Positions 43,862 through 51,057 of a stretch of DNA of 64,000 nt are shown here, one piece after another (the stretch's first letter is position 1; each line of letters starts with the position of its first letter). The stretch comes from Chthoniobacterales bacterium. Its GTDB lineage: Bacteria; Verrucomicrobiota; Verrucomicrobiia; Chthoniobacterales; Chthoniobacteraceae. Both the position numbers and the translations under genes were made by a program. Where the stretch lies: positions 64,001-128,000 of the forward strand of contig JBBQZX010000006.1 of the NCBI GenBank assembly GCA_038207335.1, written 5' to 3'. The notes under the pieces are model-generated. The model saw only the letters and a list, made by a program, of their open reading frames with translations. It had not been told where the DNA came from and did not search any database.

Positions 43862-46381
43862 TTACGCCTTCCGCACGCGGCAGGCGAAGCACTTGTAGGC
43901 TTGCTGACCGCTGAGGTTGTCGAAGTAGCGGTCGTCCACGAGGAGGTTTGCGGGCTCATAGCGCGGGTCGCCGAATTCGTCGCCCATCGCCTGCGCGGGG
44001 CCGAAGCTGTTCGGGACAAAAATCGTATCCTCACGGATGCCGTCCCACACGAGCGCGGTGCCGGTCACGGAGCCGCGCGGACTTTCCACCACGAGTTTGT
44101 CGCCGTCAGCGACTCCCGCCGACGCGGCTGCTTTCGGATGAAGCTGGATGAGTCGCACACCGTTCATTTGCTTGCCGAGATACGTCCATTGCGTGACGCC
44201 TGCGAAGTGCACGACGCTCGCGCGGCCGATCATTCCCATGAGCGGAAACTCTGCGTGGACCTTGCCGTCGCTGAGCCCGCCGAGCGTCACATTCGGCGTG
44301 ACCGCGCCGGGATTGATCGGGTTCTGGACGAGTTCCTGTGCGTATTCGATCGACGGATTTTTTCCCGTGACCTCGGGATGCGTGTAGAAAAGCGGAAGCG
44401 CAGCGTGCCCTGCGGTGCCGAGCTTTTTGTCGAGGTCGGCGGTGTGGATTTCGACTTTGCCGCTCGGAGTGAGAAAGCGTTTGCCCCTGTTCTTCGGGTC
44501 GAGCGATTCGGCGGCGGCGTACCACGACTTGTGGTCGAGGTAGAGCGTGCTGACGCTCGGCTTGTCTTCCGCGGGGCAGGGCCAGCGGAGCGGTTCGGTG
44601 CGCGCCTCCATCCGCGCCTGCGTCATGCCGCCGACGCCGGGCGTCCGCGCGACGAATTCGACCCACAGCTTTCCGTAGTCCTTCCATTCAGCCAGCAGGT
44701 TGCCGGTCCAGTATTCGGGCGCATTTTTCTTGTCGTGGCGCGCCATCGCGGCAGCGAGGTCAATCCAGATTTCGATGTCGGTCCGCGACTCGCCGACGCG
44801 CGGGACGGCGGCGTGCTGCCAGCGGATGGAGCGGTCGTCGCGCCGCATGTAAACGCCGTCCATTTCAAAGCCGCTGGCGACTGGCAGGATAACGTCGGCG
44901 AAATACGCGGGCTCCTCCATGAAGAGGCCGGTGAAGACGTAGAACTCAAGCTGCTTGAAGGCTTCGCGGACCTTTGCAGTGTTGGCGCTGCCGATGATCG
45001 GGTTGCCCTCGGTGACGATCGCCTTGAGCTGATACGGGCGTTTATTGAGGATCGACTCCGCAAACCAGTCCGGCCCAACCGGCAGCGACGTCCCTTTTTC
45101 CGGCATCTTCGTTTCCGCGGCGACCGGCGGGAGATTTAGCCCGCCCGGCCAGGTGTTGTGCATGAAGTTACAGCCGCCGCCATTCACGCCGATATTGCCG
45201 GTGATCGCGGCGAGAAAAGTGAGCGCACGGTAAGTGTCGAAGGCGCTGAGTTGATGGGAGATTCCCGCGTTGCAAAAGATCGCGGCGGGTTTCGCCTTCG
45301 CATAATCCTCGGCAATCTTTTTGATCTTCGCAGCAGGCACGCCGGTCACTCCTTCGGCCCACTCGGGCGTGTATTGTTTCTCGCCGAGATGCGTCTTCAA
45401 TTCGTCGAATCCGAGCACCCACTTCGCCACGAAAGCCTTGTCGTGAAGCCCCTTTGCAATGATGTGCGACAGCATCGCGAGCACGAGCGCGAGGTCGGTG
45501 TGCGGCTTCGGCGCGAGCCATTCATCCGCCTGTGCGCCGGTCGGTGTGAGGCGCGGGTCGACGACGACGAGCCTGGCTTTCATCTTCGCCCGCTCGCGGA
45601 GCAGATAGGCGAAAGTTACGGGGTGCGTCTCGGCTTGGTTGGTGCCGAAGAAGAGCAGGTATTTCGAGCTGCCGAGGTCTTCTTTCCCCGTGTTTTCGTC
45701 GAGCCCGTAGCCGTTCGTGAAGTTTCCCATTCCGAACGTCGCCGCCAGCGCGTTGCCTCCCGCGTCGTTGCAGACCGGGCCGACGTCCGTGTCGTTCGGC
45801 GAGCCGAGCAGCGTGAAAAATCGGCCGATGATCGAGCCCGTACCGCGCTGCAAACGACCGCTCGTTTTATTGGCAATCGCGTGCCCCTCGCCGGCGTCCC
45901 GCAGTGCGATGAATTTCTGCGCGATCAGGTCCAGCGCTTCATCCCACGAGCACGCCTCGAACTTCGACTCGGCCGCCCCTTTCTCGCCGCCGACGCGCTT
46001 CAGCGGCTTCGTGAGGCGGAAGCGATTATACACGAGCTGCGTCATCATCGGCGCCTTCACGCAGATGCCGCCGTCCTGCACCGGGTCGCCGGTTTCGCCG
46101 GTCACGTCGATGATTCGCCCGTCTTTGAGATGCACTTTGAGGCGGCAGCACGAGTTGCAAAACTGGCATACGGAATCGACGATTTTGTCCGCCTGCAGCG
46201 CGCCGCTCTGTTTTGTAAAATCAAACGTGGACGCGGGCGTGGAAGCCGCTGGGGAATGTCCAACAGTCGCGGCTTCCGCCTCGCGGCTGACGAATGGCGC
46301 GGTGCTCGCGGCGAGGGCGCCGAGCGCACCTCCGCGGAGAAAGCTGCGGCGTGAGACGGCGTTTGAATCGGTGGTTCTCAT
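43862..46381 (-). CDS. Tat-exported Mo/W-bisPGD oxidoreductase (DMSO reductase superfamily) catalytic subunit, substrate unknown
   Basis: Tat motif SRRSFLR; [4Fe-4S] motif CQFCNSCC...ICVK; RL.KPLKR.G..G..KF...SWDEA; probable Mo-ligand Cys in GPVCNDAG; N.AETHP, VVDPR, ADVILP, TPSGK.E; C-terminal molydopterin-binding domain. SD AAAGGA precedes ATG 46381. Confidence 0.92.
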   Translation of the reverse strand: MRTTDSNAVSRRSFLRGGALGALAASTAPFVSREAEAATVGHSPAASTPASTFDFTKQSGALQADKIVDSVCQFCNSCCRLKVHLKDGRIIDVTGETGDPVQDGGICVKAPMMTQLVYNRFRLTKPLKRVGGEKGAAESKFEACSWDEALDLIAQKFIALRDAGEGHAIANKTSGRLQRGTGSIIGRFFTLLGSPNDTDVGPVCNDAGGNALAATFGMGNFTNGYGLDENTGKEDLGSSKYLLFFGTNQAETHPVTFAYLLRERAKMKARLVVVDPRLTPTGAQADEWLAPKPHTDLALVLAMLSHIIAKGLHDKAFVAKWVLGFDELKTHLGEKQYTPEWAEGVTGVPAAKIKKIAEDYAKAKPAAIFCNAGISHQLSAFDTYRALTFLAAITGNIGVNGGGCNFMHNTWPGGLNLPPVAAETKMPEKGTSLPVGPDWFAESILNKRPYQLKAIVTEGNPIIGSANTAKVREAFKQLEFYVFTGLFMEEPAYFADVILPVASGFEMDGVYMRRDDRSIRWQHAAVPRVGESRTDIEIWIDLAAAMARHDKKNAPEYWTGNLLAEWKDYGKLWVEFVARTPGVGGMTQARMEARTEPLRWPCPAEDKPSVSTLYLDHKSWYAAAESLDPKNRGKRFLTPSGKVEIHTADLDKKLGTAGHAALPLFYTHPEVTGKNPSIEYAQELVQNPINPGAVTPNVTLGGLSDGKVHAEFPLMGMIGRASVVHFAGVTQWTYLGKQMNGVRLIQLHPKAAASAGVADGDKLVVESPRGSVTGTALVWDGIREDTIFVPNSFGPAQAMGDEFGDPRYEPANLLVDDRYFDNLSGQQAYKCFACRVRKA

Positions 46382-46409
46382 GGAGTGTCCTTTCGTGCGG
46401 TGCACGTTC

Positions 46410-46427
46410 ATGCGCGCATCGGCATAT
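46410..46427. promoter_or_regulatory. Candidate ArsR/SmtB-type operator in the divergent promoter
   Basis: ATG-N10-CATAT (ATGCGCGCATCGGCATAT). A second inverted repeat GCATG-N7-CATGC at 46470-46487 overlaps the regulator's start codon. Confidence 0.35.
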
Positions 46428-46482
46428 TTACCCTCCGCGTTTTTCGGTCGAGCAAATCCAGCCGCCGACGCATGATTTTCAC

Positions 46483-46788
46483 ATGCCAACGATCGATTGC
46501 ATGGAAATCTTGAAAGCCCTCGCCGACCGGACGCGGCTGCGGCTGATCAAGCTCTTGATCGCAAACGACTCCGGCGTGAGCGAACTCACGGAGGCGCTCG
46601 GGATTTCGCAGTACAACACGTCGAAGCACTTGCGCGTGCTGCGCGAGGCTGGAGTCGTGGATGTGCGGGCGCTCGGCACGCGACGCGAGTATTTCATCGA
46701 GCCGGATTTCCGTCGGCGGCTGCAGCGTGAAGGACCGGTGCTGGATTTTGGATGCTGCACGTTTCGGTTCGATCAGTTGCCGAACTGA
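46483..46788 (+). CDS. ArsR/SmtB-family transcriptional regulator with C-terminal vicinal cysteines
   Basis: LKALAD.TRL.L..LL, V.EL...LGISQ...SKHL.VLREAG.V; C-terminal DFGCCTFRF. Confidence 0.92.
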   Translation: MPTIDCMEILKALADRTRLRLIKLLIANDSGVSELTEALGISQYNTSKHLRVLREAGVVDVRALGTRREYFIEPDFRRRLQREGPVLDFGCCTFRFDQLPN

Positions 46789-46924
46789 GAAGAGCATCGC
46801 GGATAACGCCGAATTTCGTCTCTTTCCACTCCGCGTCCTCCGCGAATTCCGCGGTTCTATTCTCTACTGCCATTGCGGGCGAATTCCGTTGCGGACGGGG
46901 CTGCTGCAATATGCAATCCCGCGC

Positions 46925-47800
46925 ATGTTTCCTTCACTCACTCGTTTCAAGAATGTCACCGCATTGTCACTCGTCTCGGTCGCGCTTCCGGTTGGGGCTT
47001 TTGCTGAGACACTGAAGATCAACGGCTCGACGACCGTCAATTTGCCAGCGGCGGAGGCTGCGGAAAATCTGCGCGCCGAGAAGAAAATGGATATTCAGGT
47101 GGATACGCAGGGCGGGAGTTCGGGCGGCATTTCGATGCTCGGCGAGGGGCTCGTGCAAATCGGAATGGCGTCGAAGCCCGTGAGCGATGACGACCGCGCG
47201 AAGTTTCCGAAAGTGACGTTCAAGGAGATTCACGTCGGCGAGGATGCGGTCGCGATCATCGTTTCGAAGGACGTATGGGATGGCGGCGTTCACGAGATGA
47301 GCAAGGCACAGGTGAAGGACATCTACGAGGGGAAGATCACCAACTGGAAAGAGGTTGGCGGCAAGTCGCAGAAGATTGTGTTTTTCAACAAAGAGCCGGG
47401 GCGTGGGACGTGGGAGGTCTTTGCGCACTGGGCGTATGGCGACCCGAAGAAAGCGCCGGAGGTGAGCTTCCCGGAGGTCGGCGGGAATGAAGAGACGCGG
47501 AACAAAGTGGCCTCCACGCGCGGGGCGATGTCGCAGCTTTCCTCCTCGTGGGCGGATGGGAAAAAGGTCTTCGCGCTCGGGATTGAGGGGAAAGATGGGA
47601 AGGTGATCCAGCCGACGAATGAGAACATCGCGACGCATGCGTATCCGATGAGCCGTCCGCTGTTTTTGCTGACGAATGGCGAGCCGACGGGCGAGGCGAA
47701 AACGTTCGTTGAGTATATGCTCTCGCCTGCGGGACAGGCGCTCGTACGGAAGCACGGATACCTCTCGTTGGATCAAGTCGCCTCGCCGGCTGCGAAGTAG
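46925..47800 (+). CDS. pstS: PstS-family periplasmic oxyanion-binding protein (atypical binding motif)
   Basis: Sec signal; INGSTTV, GGSSGG, IGMASK, DAVAIIV, IY.GKITNWKEVGG, YP.SRPLF; NKEPGRGT in place of R...SGT. Confidence 0.8.
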   Translation: MFPSLTRFKNVTALSLVSVALPVGAFAETLKINGSTTVNLPAAEAAENLRAEKKMDIQVDTQGGSSGGISMLGEGLVQIGMASKPVSDDDRAKFPKVTFKEIHVGEDAVAIIVSKDVWDGGVHEMSKAQVKDIYEGKITNWKEVGGKSQKIVFFNKEPGRGTWEVFAHWAYGDPKKAPEVSFPEVGGNEETRNKVASTRGAMSQLSSSWADGKKVFALGIEGKDGKVIQPTNENIATHAYPMSRPLFLLTNGEPTGEAKTFVEYMLSPAGQALVRKHGYLSLDQVASPAAK

Positions 47801-47812
47801 TCGCTTGCGGCG

Positions 47813-48682
47813 ATGACGAAGTTTTTCAGCGTCGCATTCAGCCTCTTAGCGCTCGCGTTTTTCGCTGTGTTGCTAGGCACGTTTGCTTGGCAGAGCTTGC
47901 CTGTGTGGAGGCATGAAGGGCTGGCGTATATCACCGGCACGAAGTGGTATTTCCGGACGCATCAATTCGGCGCGCTGCCGATGATTTATGGGACGATCGT
48001 CGTCGCGGCGGTGGCGCTTGTGCTCGCGGCGCCTGTTGGTTTTGCGTCTGCGATTTTCACCGCGGAGTATCTGCCGCGGCGCGCGCGAATCGCGGTGAAA
48101 GTGCTCATCGAGCTGCTTGCGGGGATTCCCTCGGTAATCTACGGACTGCTCGGAATTCTGCTTCTGAGGAACTGGATTTACGACCTGTTCACGCGCTTCG
48201 ACATCGCAAGCGGCGACACGCTGCTGACGGCCGGAGTGCTGCTCGCGGTGATGATTTTGCCGACGGTCGTCACGCTCAGCGACGACGCGCTACGCGGTGT
48301 CGGGAGCGCGCAGCGGCAGGCGGCACGGGCGCTCGGACTCACGCGCGCGGAGACGATTTTCTCGGTCTCGCTGCGGCAGAGCGGGCGCGGGTTGATGTCC
48401 GCGCTTTTGCTCGGGCTCGGGCGCGCGCTGGGCGAGACGATCGCGGTTTTCCTCGTCGTCGGGCGGCAGGACAACAACGTGCCAGAGCACTGGTTTTCAT
48501 TAGCGCCGCTGCTCGAATCCGGGCAGACGCTGGCCAGCAAACTTGGCGGCTCCGAGACGAACATCGCGTATGGCGATTCTCTGCATTGGGGGGCGGTCGT
48601 CGGACTCGGATTGCTCCTGCTGCTCATCGTCGCGGCAACGACGATCGCGGGGACTTGGAAACGCAAACCTGACGATGCGTAA
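47813..48682 (+). CDS. pstC: Phosphate-type ABC permease PstC
   Basis: FGALPMIYGT, ELLAGIPSVIYG, MILPT, LGLGRALGETIAV. Confidence 0.85.
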   Translation: MTKFFSVAFSLLALAFFAVLLGTFAWQSLPVWRHEGLAYITGTKWYFRTHQFGALPMIYGTIVVAAVALVLAAPVGFASAIFTAEYLPRRARIAVKVLIELLAGIPSVIYGLLGILLLRNWIYDLFTRFDIASGDTLLTAGVLLAVMILPTVVTLSDDALRGVGSAQRQAARALGLTRAETIFSVSLRQSGRGLMSALLLGLGRALGETIAVFLVVGRQDNNVPEHWFSLAPLLESGQTLASKLGGSETNIAYGDSLHWGAVVGLGLLLLLIVAATTIAGTWKRKPDDA

Positions 48683-49523
48683 GGCCGCGGATCGGCTTCT
48701 GGCTTTGATTTGCGGGGCATCGGCGCTTTTTGTCTGCGCACTGCTGCTCGGGCTGATTTTTGTGATCTGGCAGCGCGGCGCACCGGCGATGAGCTGGCGT
48801 TTTCTCACCGAGCAAATCCGTCAGGTCGGCGCGGACGGCGGCATTTTCTACAACCTAGTCGGCACGGTGATCCTCATCGTCACGGCGCTCTTTGTCTGTG
48901 CGCCGATCGCCGTCGGCTTCGCGCTGCTCGAGCGCGTTTTCCTCCGATCGGCAGGCGCGCGGCGAGGGCTCACGCTGTTCCTTTATTTGCTGAATGGGCT
49001 GCCTTCGATCGTGTTCGGCATCTTCGGCTTCCTCGTTTTTGTGAAGTGGCTCGGCTGGGGAAAATCGTGGCTCGCGGGCGGAATTTTACTCGCGGCGATG
49101 ATCCTGCCGACCGTCACGGTTGCGCTCGTCGAGAGGATCAAGGCATTGCCTTCCAAATACACCGAAGCGGCAGCCGCGCTTGGGCTCACGCAGTCGCAAA
49201 TCATCTGGTCGGTGATCCTGCCGCAGTCGTGGGCCGGACTGCTCACGGGCTCGCTGCTCGGGCTCGCGCGGGCGGCGGGCGAGACGGCGCCGATCATGTT
49301 CACCGCCACGATTTTTGCGGGCGCGTCGCTGCCAACAGGGATTAAGGACAGCCCGGTGCTTTCGCTGCCATATCACATTTTTATTCTCGCGCAGGACTCG
49401 TTTGATCCTGCGGTTGGCGCAAAGCTGTGGGGCTCCGCGCTCGTGCTGCTCGCGCTCGTCGTCGGGCTCAGCCTCATCGCGCTGCCGAGCCGCCTGAAAT
49501 TGCATGAAGAAGCCAATGTCTGA
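48675..49523 (+). CDS. pstA: Phosphate-type ABC permease PstA
   Basis: GGI...LVGT, L.GLPSIVFGIFG, EAAAALG, LARAAGETAP..FT; 8-nt overlap with pstC. Confidence 0.85.
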   Translation: MRKAADRLLALICGASALFVCALLLGLIFVIWQRGAPAMSWRFLTEQIRQVGADGGIFYNLVGTVILIVTALFVCAPIAVGFALLERVFLRSAGARRGLTLFLYLLNGLPSIVFGIFGFLVFVKWLGWGKSWLAGGILLAAMILPTVTVALVERIKALPSKYTEAAAALGLTQSQIIWSVILPQSWAGLLTGSLLGLARAAGETAPIMFTATIFAGASLPTGIKDSPVLSLPYHIFILAQDSFDPAVGAKLWGSALVLLALVVGLSLIALPSRLKLHEEANV

Positions 49524-50316
49524 ACCTGTCTGCCAGCCCGCCGTCCGCGCCGATGCGCCCGTGCTTTCCGCCCGCGATGTGTCGGTCACGGCGAATGGAA
49601 AGCCACTGCTGCGAAACGTGCGATTCGATGTCCGCGCAGGTCAGGTTTTCGGAATCATTGGCCCATCCGGCGCAGGGAAGAGCACGCTGTTGCGGACGCT
49701 GAACCGGCTTGTGGACTTGATTCCCGCGCTGCGCGTGAGCGGCGACGTGCGGCTGCGCGGCGAGTCGATTTACGCGCCGGGCGTAGATGTGAATGCGTTG
49801 CGCGTCCGCATCGGGATGCTGTTTCAGCAGCCCGTGGTCTTCCCCGGCAGCATCGGAGAGAACGTGCTTTTCGGGGCGAAACGGCTTCGGCGGCTCGGGC
49901 GCGAGGAGCGGCACGCTCTGGTCGAGAGCGCGCTGCGCGAAGCGGCGCTTTGGGATGAAGTAAAGGACCGTCTCCGCCATTCGGCGTTCGCACTTTCCGT
50001 CGGGCAGCAGCAGCGACTCTGCCTGGCGCGAGCGCTGGCGGTGCAGCCCGAGGTTCTGCTGATGGACGAGCCGACGAGCGCGCTCGACCCGCGCTCCACG
50101 GCGGCGATTGAGGAACTCATCACACGGCTGCGCGAACGGCACACGATCGTGCTAGTCACGCACAACGTCGCGCAGGCGCGGCGCGTCACCGACTGGATCG
50201 CGTGCGTCTGCGTACGCGACGGGGCGGGGGAGATCGTGGAAAGCGCGTGCTGCGACGCGGTGCTGGACAATCCGCAATGCCGCGAGGTGATCGAGTACCT
50301 CGAACACGCGGGGTGA
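49516..50316 (+). CDS. pstB: Phosphate-type ABC ATPase PstB with a Cys-rich C-terminus
   Basis: GPSGAGKST, LNRL.D, GMLFQQP, AALWDEVKDRL, LSVGQQQRLCLAR, LLMDEPTSALDP, VTHN..QA.R; 8-nt overlap with pstA. Confidence 0.88.
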   Translation: MSEPVCQPAVRADAPVLSARDVSVTANGKPLLRNVRFDVRAGQVFGIIGPSGAGKSTLLRTLNRLVDLIPALRVSGDVRLRGESIYAPGVDVNALRVRIGMLFQQPVVFPGSIGENVLFGAKRLRRLGREERHALVESALREAALWDEVKDRLRHSAFALSVGQQQRLCLARALAVQPEVLLMDEPTSALDPRSTAAIEELITRLRERHTIVLVTHNVAQARRVTDWIACVCVRDGAGEIVESACCDAVLDNPQCREVIEYLEHAG

Positions 50317-50328
50317 GCGCAGCGCGGG

Positions 50329-51057
50329 CTACTTCACGAATATTTCGGGCTCTTCGTGCCAGACGTGTTCGATTTCACGCATGATGAGGGCGTGATCGAA
50401 TGTGACGCTTCCGGACGGGAAGACAGGTTCGTCGGCGAAAAAGGACGTTGCGATGTGATCGATGGCGAGAGGGCGGACATTCCAGTCGTCGATTTCGAGG
50501 CGAAGGCCATCCAATCGGCAACCGGCGCGCGTGGCGGAATATCCGACGCTGCCGCCCTCGAAAAACTCCGACGACGCGGCCAGCGAATCGAAGCATGAAG
50601 ACGCTGGAAATGAATCGGTCTCGTGAGCACGAATCTCCGCTGTCATGCCGTGATCGCGTGCGCGGATGGACATGGAAATCTGCGAGCCGTCGTCGGTGAC
50701 CGCGAACTCAGCGAGATGATGCTCGCCGGGGAAAATGCGACCGCCCGTGAAATGATTGAGGCGCGAATCGGTGTCGCGGCGCGGAATGTAAACGCCCTCG
50801 CGAGTTTCGCCGGTACGCGTCTCCCACTGCACGGCGATGCGATGGGCTGCGTTCTCGCTGGAGATGCCGCAGAGGCGCGGCAGCCACGCGGGGCGAACCT
50901 GCTCCAGGCGGATGAGACAGATGCCGGCGATGGCGTTTCCGCGATGAAGTTTCGGACGAAAGGGAGAGGGCAAAAAGCGCCCCATGACTTCCGCATCCAC
51001 GCGAAAATTCGCGAGTATTCTGCGACGAATTAGCCCGTGAATGACTGGCAGTCGCAT
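50329..51057 (-). CDS. DUF2071/YqjF-like protein
   Basis: I.RRILANFRVD, GICLIRL..VRP, SENAAHRIAV.W, GVYIPRRDT.S, FPG.H. Confidence 0.7.
   Translation of the reverse strand: MRLPVIHGLIRRRILANFRVDAEVMGRFLPSPFRPKLHRGNAIAGICLIRLEQVRPAWLPRLCGISSENAAHRIAVQWETRTGETREGVYIPRRDTDSRLNHFTGGRIFPGEHHLAEFAVTDDGSQISMSIRARDHGMTAEIRAHETDSFPASSCFDSLAASSEFFEGGSVGYSATRAGCRLDGLRLEIDDWNVRPLAIDHIATSFFADEPVFPSGSVTFDHALIMREIEHVWHEEPEIFVK

Follow-up and report, generated by a model that had tools for sequence, protein, structure and literature searches.

Described systems and the locus under study

In Agrobacterium tumefaciens 5A/GW4, a second pst operon, which is induced by As(III) and repressed by ArsR, lies beside a periplasmic molybdenum (Mo) enzyme; the housekeeping pst genes are elsewhere and PstS1 reportedly binds As(V) and mediates its import (PMC7965956, PMC7533571). 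Here, we describe a locus with a similar arrangement in a Chthoniobacterales bacterium (GCA_038207335.1). The window, meaning the whole stretch of DNA analysed, is 64,000 nt long and corresponds to positions 64,001–128,000 of JBBQZX010000006.1. Coordinates are those of the window unless preceded by one of our labels for contigs of the host genome (C) or for loci (L); genomes are labelled G. The features of the module are:

43862–46381, minus strand: Mo enzyme gene, encoding a Mo/W-bis(pyranopterin guanine dinucleotide) (bisPGD) enzyme of 839 aa exported by the twin-arginine translocation (Tat) pathway
46483–46788, plus strand: arsR, ArsR/SmtB repressor, 101 aa
46925–47800, plus strand: pstS, PstS-like binding protein, 291 aa
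47813–48682, plus strand: pstC, PstC-like permease, 289 aa
48675–49523, plus strand: pstA, PstA-like permease, 282 aa
49516–50316, plus strand: pstB, PstB-like ATPase, 266 aa
46408–46427, no strand: predicted ArsR operator 1, TCATGC-N8-GCATAT, 10/12 match, in the divergent promoter
46909–46928, no strand: predicted ArsR operator 2, ATATGC-N8-GCATGT, 11/12 match, overlapping the pstS start codon

The enzyme gene and arsR are separated by a divergent gap of 101 bp (46382–46482), pstC/pstA and pstA/pstB overlap by 8 nt each, and the GC content of the module region is about that of its flanks. As in the Agrobacterium aioBA-pst1 island, an ArsR gene and an additional set of pst genes adjoin the gene for an exported Mo enzyme and other pst loci lie elsewhere, but AioXSR, PhoB1 and PhoU1 are missing and a single small ArsR seems to control both arms. 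The bisenarsan (bsn) cluster of Streptomyces lividans 66 and S. coelicolor is also similar, as it includes ArsR genes and likely orthologues of both the enzyme and the ATP-binding cassette (ABC) transporter (PMC4943196). However, the window contains no bsn biosynthetic genes and, hence, the enzyme and transporter represent a portable module found far outside Streptomyces.

The module probably works on the same logic as the aio-pst island, though by the tests run the enzyme is not Aio, Arr/Arx, Psr or formate dehydrogenase (FDH). Its core is ArsR together with the Pst-like ABC transporter, to which a swappable exported enzyme is added, and we are confident that it is linked to arsenic.

A first-pass annotation, made from the sequence alone, had placed the six genes, the 101 bp gap and the two overlaps exactly where they are listed above, and its description of a periplasm-targeted Mo-bisPGD enzyme, a vicinal CC in ArsR, a rewritten anion-binding motif in PstS and a lack of phoU/phoBR and arsC/acr3/arsB nearby agrees with the data given below. 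Its claim of extra cysteines in the PstB tail holds for this protein but only partly for the clade. The inverted repeats that it reported in the divergent promoter were, when scanned for blindly, indistinguishable from chance; a conserved palindrome emerged from comparison with relatives, and the better of its two copies, at 46909–46928, had been missed.

The Mo enzyme

The enzyme includes the domains PF04879, PF00384 and PF01568, each above the Pfam cut-off, and a Tat motif, SRRSFL. These domains, and TM-scores of 0.6–0.72 to solved members, place it in the MopB (DMSO reductase) superfamily; the structure model has a pTM of 0.81 and the best solved folds are 18–23 % identical. The [4Fe-4S] motif is C71/C74/C78/C107, plus K109, and the predicted metal ligand is C204 (within GPVCND), which aligns with the metal ligand of FDH, Psr and FdhH. 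C204, R176 and R179 are invariant in an alignment of 30 family members, and among 216 homologues GPVCND is found in 206 and a twin-arginine pattern in 182.

The enzyme thus shares its fold, the N-terminal [4Fe-4S] motif and a Cys metal ligand with ArrA/ArxA, PsrA/PhsA, NapA and FdhF, and is Tat-exported as are Arr, Arx, Psr and Nap. However, identity in fold matches is only 18–23 %, and it falls far short of the scores required and has no B or C subunit nearby. In fact, it reached no NCBIfam cut-off, scoring 308 bits against TIGR01591 (FDH, cut-off 666), 279 against NF012032 (PsrA/PhsA, 694), 192 against NF041714 (ArrA, 1600) and 67 against TIGR02693 (AioA, 359), and no ArxA model was among the 25 best NCBIfam matches listed. 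Additional features separate it from each group. AioA has no amino-acid ligand to Mo (PMC10100899), whereas here Cys204 is invariant, there is a fourth iron–sulfur (FeS) Cys, and an adjacent small FeS (AioB, Rieske) subunit is missing. There is no FeS subunit among the neighbours, as would be expected for ArrA/ArxA, and no NrfC/NrfD partners, as would be expected for PsrA/PhsA. In FDH the ligand Cys or Sec is followed by a catalytic His, but here the Cys is followed by Asn-Asp (C-N-D). The excerpt of Table 1 of PMC10100899, with which our family was compared by description, lists no partner-less arsenic-linked MopB lineage.

FeS, NrfD, cytochrome or chaperone genes that recur beside the enzyme were not found among the recurring gene clusters or among 94 neighbouring genes, the majority of them taken from 161 listed flanking genes. 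A gene whose secreted product combines a CX5R loop of the phosphatase type with a CxxCH haem motif at the C-terminus lies 3′ of the exported enzyme in Chthoniobacter-like genomes (L006:11806–12714, L015, L076, L097–L100 and L107). This phosphatase-cytochrome c-like gene follows the Mo enzyme in 3 of 80 loci and has no match in the host genome; its product is possibly an electron partner, or its position mere synteny. The host genome does include moaA and tatC, and several NTP-transferase genes among which MobA was not singled out.

A total of 215 matches to the enzyme were found among GTDB species genomes, and all locus counts given for the enzyme (n=80) refer to the best 80 of these, in which it is 63–84 % identical. 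They are from Verrucomicrobiota, Planctomycetota, Cyanobacteriota, Actinomycetota, Acidobacteriota and Myxococcota, and the nearest named relatives are Chthoniobacterales. Clustering at 50 % identity leaves essentially one full-length representative, and the full-length sisters are 35–43 % identical. In a FastTree tree the family sits on a long, well-supported stem; this tree holds no named reference enzymes (its Streptomyces row was called Pst-linked from the literature) and therefore does not place the family among known enzymes. Three of the sister groups (P0130, P0131, P0134, P0136, P0138–P0140 and P0144) keep C-N-D at the ligand, and one sister Mo enzyme is on a plasmid (L170) near betaine and Rieske genes. 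The distribution of the enzyme is patchy: 1 of 60 relatives, none of 400 other genomes of the phylum, and 3 of 63 actinomycete genomes sampled by genus, in none of which was the PstS clade found. Searches of the ESM Atlas returned only generic molybdopterin clusters, and in the literature, as far as the excerpts extend, no description of this enzyme family or of the module was found. The enzyme is likely a single-subunit member of a family that is new in function.

An additional Pst-type transporter

Neither phoU/phoBR nor arsC/acr3/arsB was found near the module, either in the list of open reading frames for 36000–58000, inspected by eye, or among genome-wide marker matches. As the 5.17 Mb host genome includes two further pst loci, each with phoU (C2:240420–245537 and C5:114074–119779), the pst genes in the window are a third, additional system. 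The best NCBIfam matches of all four subunits are Pst models, but only PstC exceeds the cut-off (231 bits against TIGR02138), with PstS at 187 bits against TIGR02136 (cut-off 206.6), PstA at 190 against TIGR00974 (cut-off 193) and PstB at 286 against TIGR00972 (cut-off 343).

The phosphate contacts of PBP-1 (4Q8R) are Ser11, Thr12, Ser13, Ser41, Ser59, Arg125, Ser129, Gly130 and Thr131, and Ser59 replaces an Asp that gives other phosphate-binding proteins >500-fold selectivity against arsenate (PMC5381212). When PstS was aligned to 4Q8R, seven of the nine contacts were kept or conservatively changed, and Ser83 was found at position 59, where selective proteins have the Asp. Two contacts differ from those in PBP-1, K156 (47390–47392) for Arg125 and R160 (47402–47404) for Ser129, and both changes are fixed across the clade. 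The resulting motif, NKEPGRGT, is present in 118 of 119 PstS homologues, whereas the phoU-linked PstS of the host genome keep R-x3-SGT. Hence, the window system has neither the phoU/phoBR linkage nor the Arg-x3-Ser-Gly-Thr motif of a canonical Pho-regulon PstSCAB-PhoU and, judged by these residues, PstS does not seem to be highly selective for phosphate. An orphan PstS-like gene (C2:191921–192886, L085), 34 % identical to the window PstS, has the motif RPQSGYGA and no adjoining transporter. The PstB C-terminal tail includes five Cys, and at least five are found in 22 of 41 rows of the PstB clade vs none or one in five canonical PstB rows; they are a possible As(III) gate.

ArsR and its predicted operator

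ArsR passes the NCBIfam model NF033788 and includes Cys6 and a vicinal pair, Cys91-Cys92 (46753–46758). With duplicates included, the C-terminal pair is kept in all 64 rows of the ArsR clade and an N-terminal Cys in 59 of the 60 with an intact start. A C-terminal vicinal pair is also found in AfArsR (C95, C96) and SpArsR, and CgArsR too has a vicinal pair, but the N-terminal position of the third Cys falls outside the four types listed in the excerpt of PMC13236881. As(III) repressors have three cysteines while SpArsR, which is selective for MAs(III), has two, and the thiol sites of ArsR proteins also sense Sb(III) (PMC13236881). Cys6, Cys91 and Cys92 are predicted to form a three-thiol As(III)/Sb(III) site. 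In L004, L076 and L103, an ArsR of this clade is encoded at the head of aquaporin-arsC genes. A dimer model of ArsR passed with a score of 0.39 (best control 0.00), the mark being one that 21 of the 30 solved pairs reached but none of 23 single chains; contact agreement was 81 % or better and pLDDT 87 or better. The interface of this model lists residues 7–19 and 90–95; the model adds little, as ArsR dimers are textbook.

A blind scan of the divergent gap returned only inverted repeats of 6–11 nt, as expected by chance, and a sigma-70 scan found nothing above chance. However, comparison of the regions upstream of arsR in relatives revealed a common palindrome, ATATGC-N8-GCATAT. Matches of at least 10/12 were found in 24 of 50 regions (one, in L123, from a mis-cut region; 10 duplicate loci and regions <100 bases were left out) vs 0.2 on average in 30 shuffles of the bases, with the motif derived from the same sequences in which it was counted. 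Changing the spacer to 7 or 9 reduced the number of regions to 1 and 0, respectively, and the distance between the palindrome and the start of arsR is constant in most regions. The operator 2 copy is one of only three sites of at least 11/12 in the genome, whereas 38 sites score 10/12, and the copy in the gap (10/12) therefore rests on its conserved position. The palindrome in front of the enzyme and in front of pstS is likely the ArsR operator.

Another of the sites of at least 11/12, a perfect palindrome at C3:179681, is associated with an ArsR paralogue that is 62 % identical (C3:179670–181732, L086). The palindrome there is at the start of a gene for a PEP-CTERM-like surface protein, which is followed by a prepilin-type gene, and a gene for a similar surface protein precedes the Mo enzyme in L034.

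Arsenic genes near the enzyme

Genes for ars enzymes or transporters, or bsnMN (aroA-gpmI), are near the enzyme in 25 of the 80 loci and in 16 of the 39 with at least 12 kb of flank. Both figures compare with 17 of 2212 windows of 16 kb (0.8 %) in a background taken from one genome, that of the host; the marker set was drawn from these same enzyme loci, which are kin and not independent. Neighbouring proteins that were picked and exceed the NCBIfam cut-off are arsenosugar ArsM, ArsS, Acr3, ArsH, ArsC and ArsI, while ArsN1-like and ArsK-like proteins fall below it. Operon-like arrangements include arsM-enzyme-arsS (L028) and arsR-acr3-arsO-enzyme on the Streptomyces plasmid NZ_CP109189. In L065, L067, L176 and L177, the enzyme gene is directly upstream of aroA-gpmI, which are followed by one further gene and then a gene for PiT. 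PiT is near the enzyme in 10 of 80 loci and the Pst clade of the window in 8 of 80, but never both, and an aquaporin gene is near it in 5 of 80. The host genome has other arsenic genes, arsM-arsS on C1 and arsR-aquaporin-arsC on C8.

In two Amycolatopsis loci (L036:10486–18395 and L038:10498–18406), a candidate arsinothricin-like cluster adjoins the enzyme and includes genes for an ArsR-ArsN fusion, an ATP-grasp protein, PiT, an ArsM-like protein, a CobW-like GTPase, a GNAT protein and a radical SAM protein ending in RCCVKC, which we take to be the ArsL signature. Genes for such a CobW-like GTPase are repeatedly found close to the enzyme or to the Pst clade (L016, L018, L032, L036, L038, L045, L075, L094 and L097), and their product could be a metal or arsenic chaperone. 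In L011 (7207–8001), six other enzyme loci and six PstS-clade loci, a gene between arsR and that for the exported enzyme, whether Mo enzyme or rhodanese (see below), encodes a secreted protein of 260 aa. This protein may be an outer-membrane barrel; it matches no Pfam family and has no match in the host genome.

Linkage to the Pst clade and replacement of the enzyme by a rhodanese

The eight loci in which the Pst clade adjoins the enzyme display several gene orders. The linkage recurs in Verrucomicrobia, one Phycisphaerales genome and Streptomyces. The PstS clade is in only 1 of the 400 other genomes of the phylum in which the enzyme was absent and, as both are rare, their co-occurrence in 8 of 80 loci is above chance. 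An obligate trio of enzyme, ArsR and Pst was considered and rejected, as the enzyme and transporter are mostly apart. Among 80 metagenome loci that include the PstS clade, 48 had an ArsR match and 4 an ArsM match. In 18 of these 80 (some near-duplicates), a secreted tandem rhodanese with a CGTSRE loop is found, mostly in the position of the enzyme, while none was detected in the 80 enzyme loci or the host genome. Among the 60 relatives, eight have the PstS clade, nine have the rhodanese (adjoining pstS in three) and one, with neither, has the enzyme. The rhodanese is conserved, bears a signal peptide and lies beside the same ArsR and Pst genes (in L132:1177–2121 it is between pstS and pstC); it is also found in genomes G006, G013 and G036. 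It could act on As(III) or thioarsenate via sulfur transfer.

A DUF2071 gene (50329–51057, minus strand) is convergent on pstB, but was rejected as a part of the module because it is missing from all 80 enzyme loci.

Likely orthologues in the bisenarsan cluster

On the Streptomyces plasmid NZ_CP109189, the enzyme gene shares an island with aroA-gpmI, ars genes and a pstS whose product has KEPGRGT and is 49 % identical to the PstS in the window. A 90 % identity cluster that includes S. coelicolor Q9L212 and 840 aa proteins of S. coelicoflavus has a representative 66 % identical to the enzyme. In the supplement of PMC4943196, SLI1095 is an 840 aa 'anaerobic dehydrogenase', 97 % identical to an S. 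coelicoflavus protein and directly preceding the aroA homologue, and SLI1099–1101 appear in the bsn gene table as a phosphate-binding ABC transporter. Protein cluster, length and position together indicate that SLI1095 is likely an orthologue of the enzyme. Of the 20 bases in the forward primer published for SLI_1099, 17 agree with the plasmid pstS (controls 11–12), and SLI1099 is likely an orthologue of the window pstS, though no more than likely because the reverse primer does not discriminate (13 vs 13–14 in controls). SLI_1099 and aroA were induced at 500 µM arsenate with 3 µM phosphate (PMC4943196). BsnM is proposed to use As(V), the bsn pathway is proposed to start from As(V) and the cluster is without SAM enzymes (PMC12159101). 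In the excerpts of PMC4943196 and PMC12159101, no function is assigned to SLI1095. In 2025, Pst-type transporter genes of bsn were reportedly tied to As(V) uptake.

Proposed function and alternatives

The reading that best accommodates these findings, to which we assign a probability of about 0.5, is that As(III) is sensed by ArsR, oxidized to As(V) in the periplasm by the enzyme and imported as arsenate by the ABC transporter. As(III) would bind Cys6, Cys91 and Cys92 of ArsR, lifting repression of both arms, and the exported enzyme would transfer oxygen to As(III) at its Cys-ligated Mo centre, with the [4Fe-4S] cluster handing the electrons on to a periplasmic carrier encoded elsewhere. Uptake of the As(V), probably with phosphate, would fall to the ABC transporter, and the imported As(V) may feed organoarsenic synthesis or ArsC. 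From its gene context, the enzyme is likely an arsenite oxidase. Oxidation is preferred because the enzyme is placed together with As(V) transporters and with BsnM, which consumes As(V), and because this direction would be fitting in resistance operons as well. The Agrobacterium aioBA-pst1 island operates in this manner (PMC7965956, PMC7533571). Also in favour of the reading, an aioA gene above the cut-off was found in none of five enzyme-bearing genomes, though this counts for little as aioA is rare anyway. The uncertain part is the direction and the substrate, less so the link to arsenic. Several observations, in addition to the origin of the marker set noted above, weigh against this reading. 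The best sequence and fold matches of the enzyme are formate dehydrogenases and reductases (Psr, Nap, Arr) and not AioA, and no electron-accepting partner adjoins it among the 94 neighbouring genes scanned. None of the 80 PstS-clade metagenome loci includes the enzyme, nor does any of the 25 that extend over 8 kb or more, and it was likewise found in none of eight related genomes with the PstS clade. Nineteen of the 39 well-flanked enzyme loci are without any arsenic marker, and in five Nostoc loci (L039, L043, L046, L052 and L055) with no arsenic gene near the enzyme it adjoins genes for very large secreted alkaline phosphatase/phytase/phosphodiesterase fusions. Finally, the arsenic used by ArsM, ArsS and ArsL is trivalent, which would be more in keeping with a reductase.

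Such a reductase, a non-respiratory periplasmic enzyme acting on As(V) or methylarsenate and supplying trivalent arsenic for entry via aquaporin and for ArsM, ArsS or ArsL, would fit the Cys-ligated, Arg-lined site and [4Fe-4S] cluster, which are like those of Arr, Psr and Nap, and would account for the position between arsM and arsS in L028 and the aquaporin genes in five loci. We nevertheless consider it quite improbable, as it would use up the As(V) on which BsnM and the co-regulated As(V) transporters depend and raise the toxicity of arsenic in resistance operons, and no quinol-linked partner was among the 94 genes scanned. It is also unlikely that the module serves detoxification alone, with As(III) oxidized outside the cell and the ABC transporter acting as an arsenic-induced phosphate importer that excludes arsenate and so protects the phosphate supply. 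Pst systems are generally more phosphate-specific than Pit and are induced under arsenic (PMC6620896), PstC is above the cut-off for phosphate permeases, and the enzyme is found by resistance genes (aquaporin-arsC, acr3) in L004, L047, L061, L068, L070, L072 and L076. But PstS is without the selectivity Asp, the less selective PiT fills the same slot in 10 loci, and the same PstS motif occurs in an island with the arsenate-consuming bsnMN. Of the two import options raised in the first-pass annotation, arsenate uptake fits better than arsenate-excluding phosphate uptake. The linked transporters are of phosphate/arsenate types.

A methylated or thiolated arsenical as the substrate, with the enzyme oxidizing exported MAs(III) or DMA(III) or desulfurating thioarsenate and the transporter importing the pentavalent product, is similarly improbable, though it would explain the frequent organoarsenical neighbours (ArsM, ArsH, ArsI, ArsK-like and ArsN-like proteins, flavoproteins) and the presence of a rhodanese in the slot of the enzyme, and the rewritten PstS pocket could suit a different anion. 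Against it, the three conserved Cys of ArsR fit inorganic As(III), whereas the MAs(III)-selective SpArsR has only two (PMC13236881), and the bsnMN clusters start from inorganic As(V) with no SAM enzymes in bsn (PMC12159101). Phosphatase, phytase, PhoX or ordinary pstS genes by the enzyme (L022, L035, L039, L043, L046, L047, L052, L055 and L072), and the capacity of ArsR thiol sites to sense Sb(III) (PMC13236881), raise the question of whether the module scavenges phosphorus, for example by converting phosphite to phosphate, or handles another oxyanion (Sb, Se), the arsenic genes being mere co-residents of the islands. We regard this as very unlikely given the control by a three-Cys ArsR and not PhoB, and the tight placement inside runs of ars, arsenosugar and bsn genes in three phyla.

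The general proposal of the first-pass annotation, a module that couples redox conversion of an oxyanion to its import, is thus supported but narrowed to arsenic rather than Se, Te or reduced P. None of the conditions that it had named as refuting was found to apply: Mo-enzyme/Pst linkage recurs in other genomes, separate canonical pst-phoU loci exist, and the likely Streptomyces pstS orthologue responds to a metalloid, namely arsenate at low phosphate (PMC4943196). Its view that the architecture was undescribed does not wholly stand, as an ArsR-controlled pst operon by an arsenite oxidase is known in Agrobacterium and the bsn gene table lists likely orthologues.

Implications

A broader proposal is offered tentatively, as we doubt that all of it will hold together. 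The enzyme would add to Aio and Arx another class of arsenite oxidase, exported but not respiratory, which consists of one subunit and has a Cys metal ligand. It would be paired with an arsenate-preferring ABC importer gated by As(III) at the ATPase. It would have spread through soil Verrucomicrobia, Planctomycetes, cyanobacteria and actinomycetes as an acquisition system feeding arsenosugar, arsinothricin-like and arsonate pathways, in which a secreted sulfurtransferase can replace the oxidase.

Surveys of arsenic cycling count aioA, arxA and arrA, and this enzyme family is invisible to them because databases give its members the label 'formate dehydrogenase' or 'anaerobic selenocysteine-containing dehydrogenase'. 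If the enzyme oxidizes As(III), it is a candidate for that oxidation in aerobes without aio. A preference of the ABC transporter for arsenate would make it a dedicated importer of arsenic and support the view that some bacteria acquire arsenic rather than only expelling it. As a close relative is present in S. coelicolor, both questions can be addressed in a model organism.

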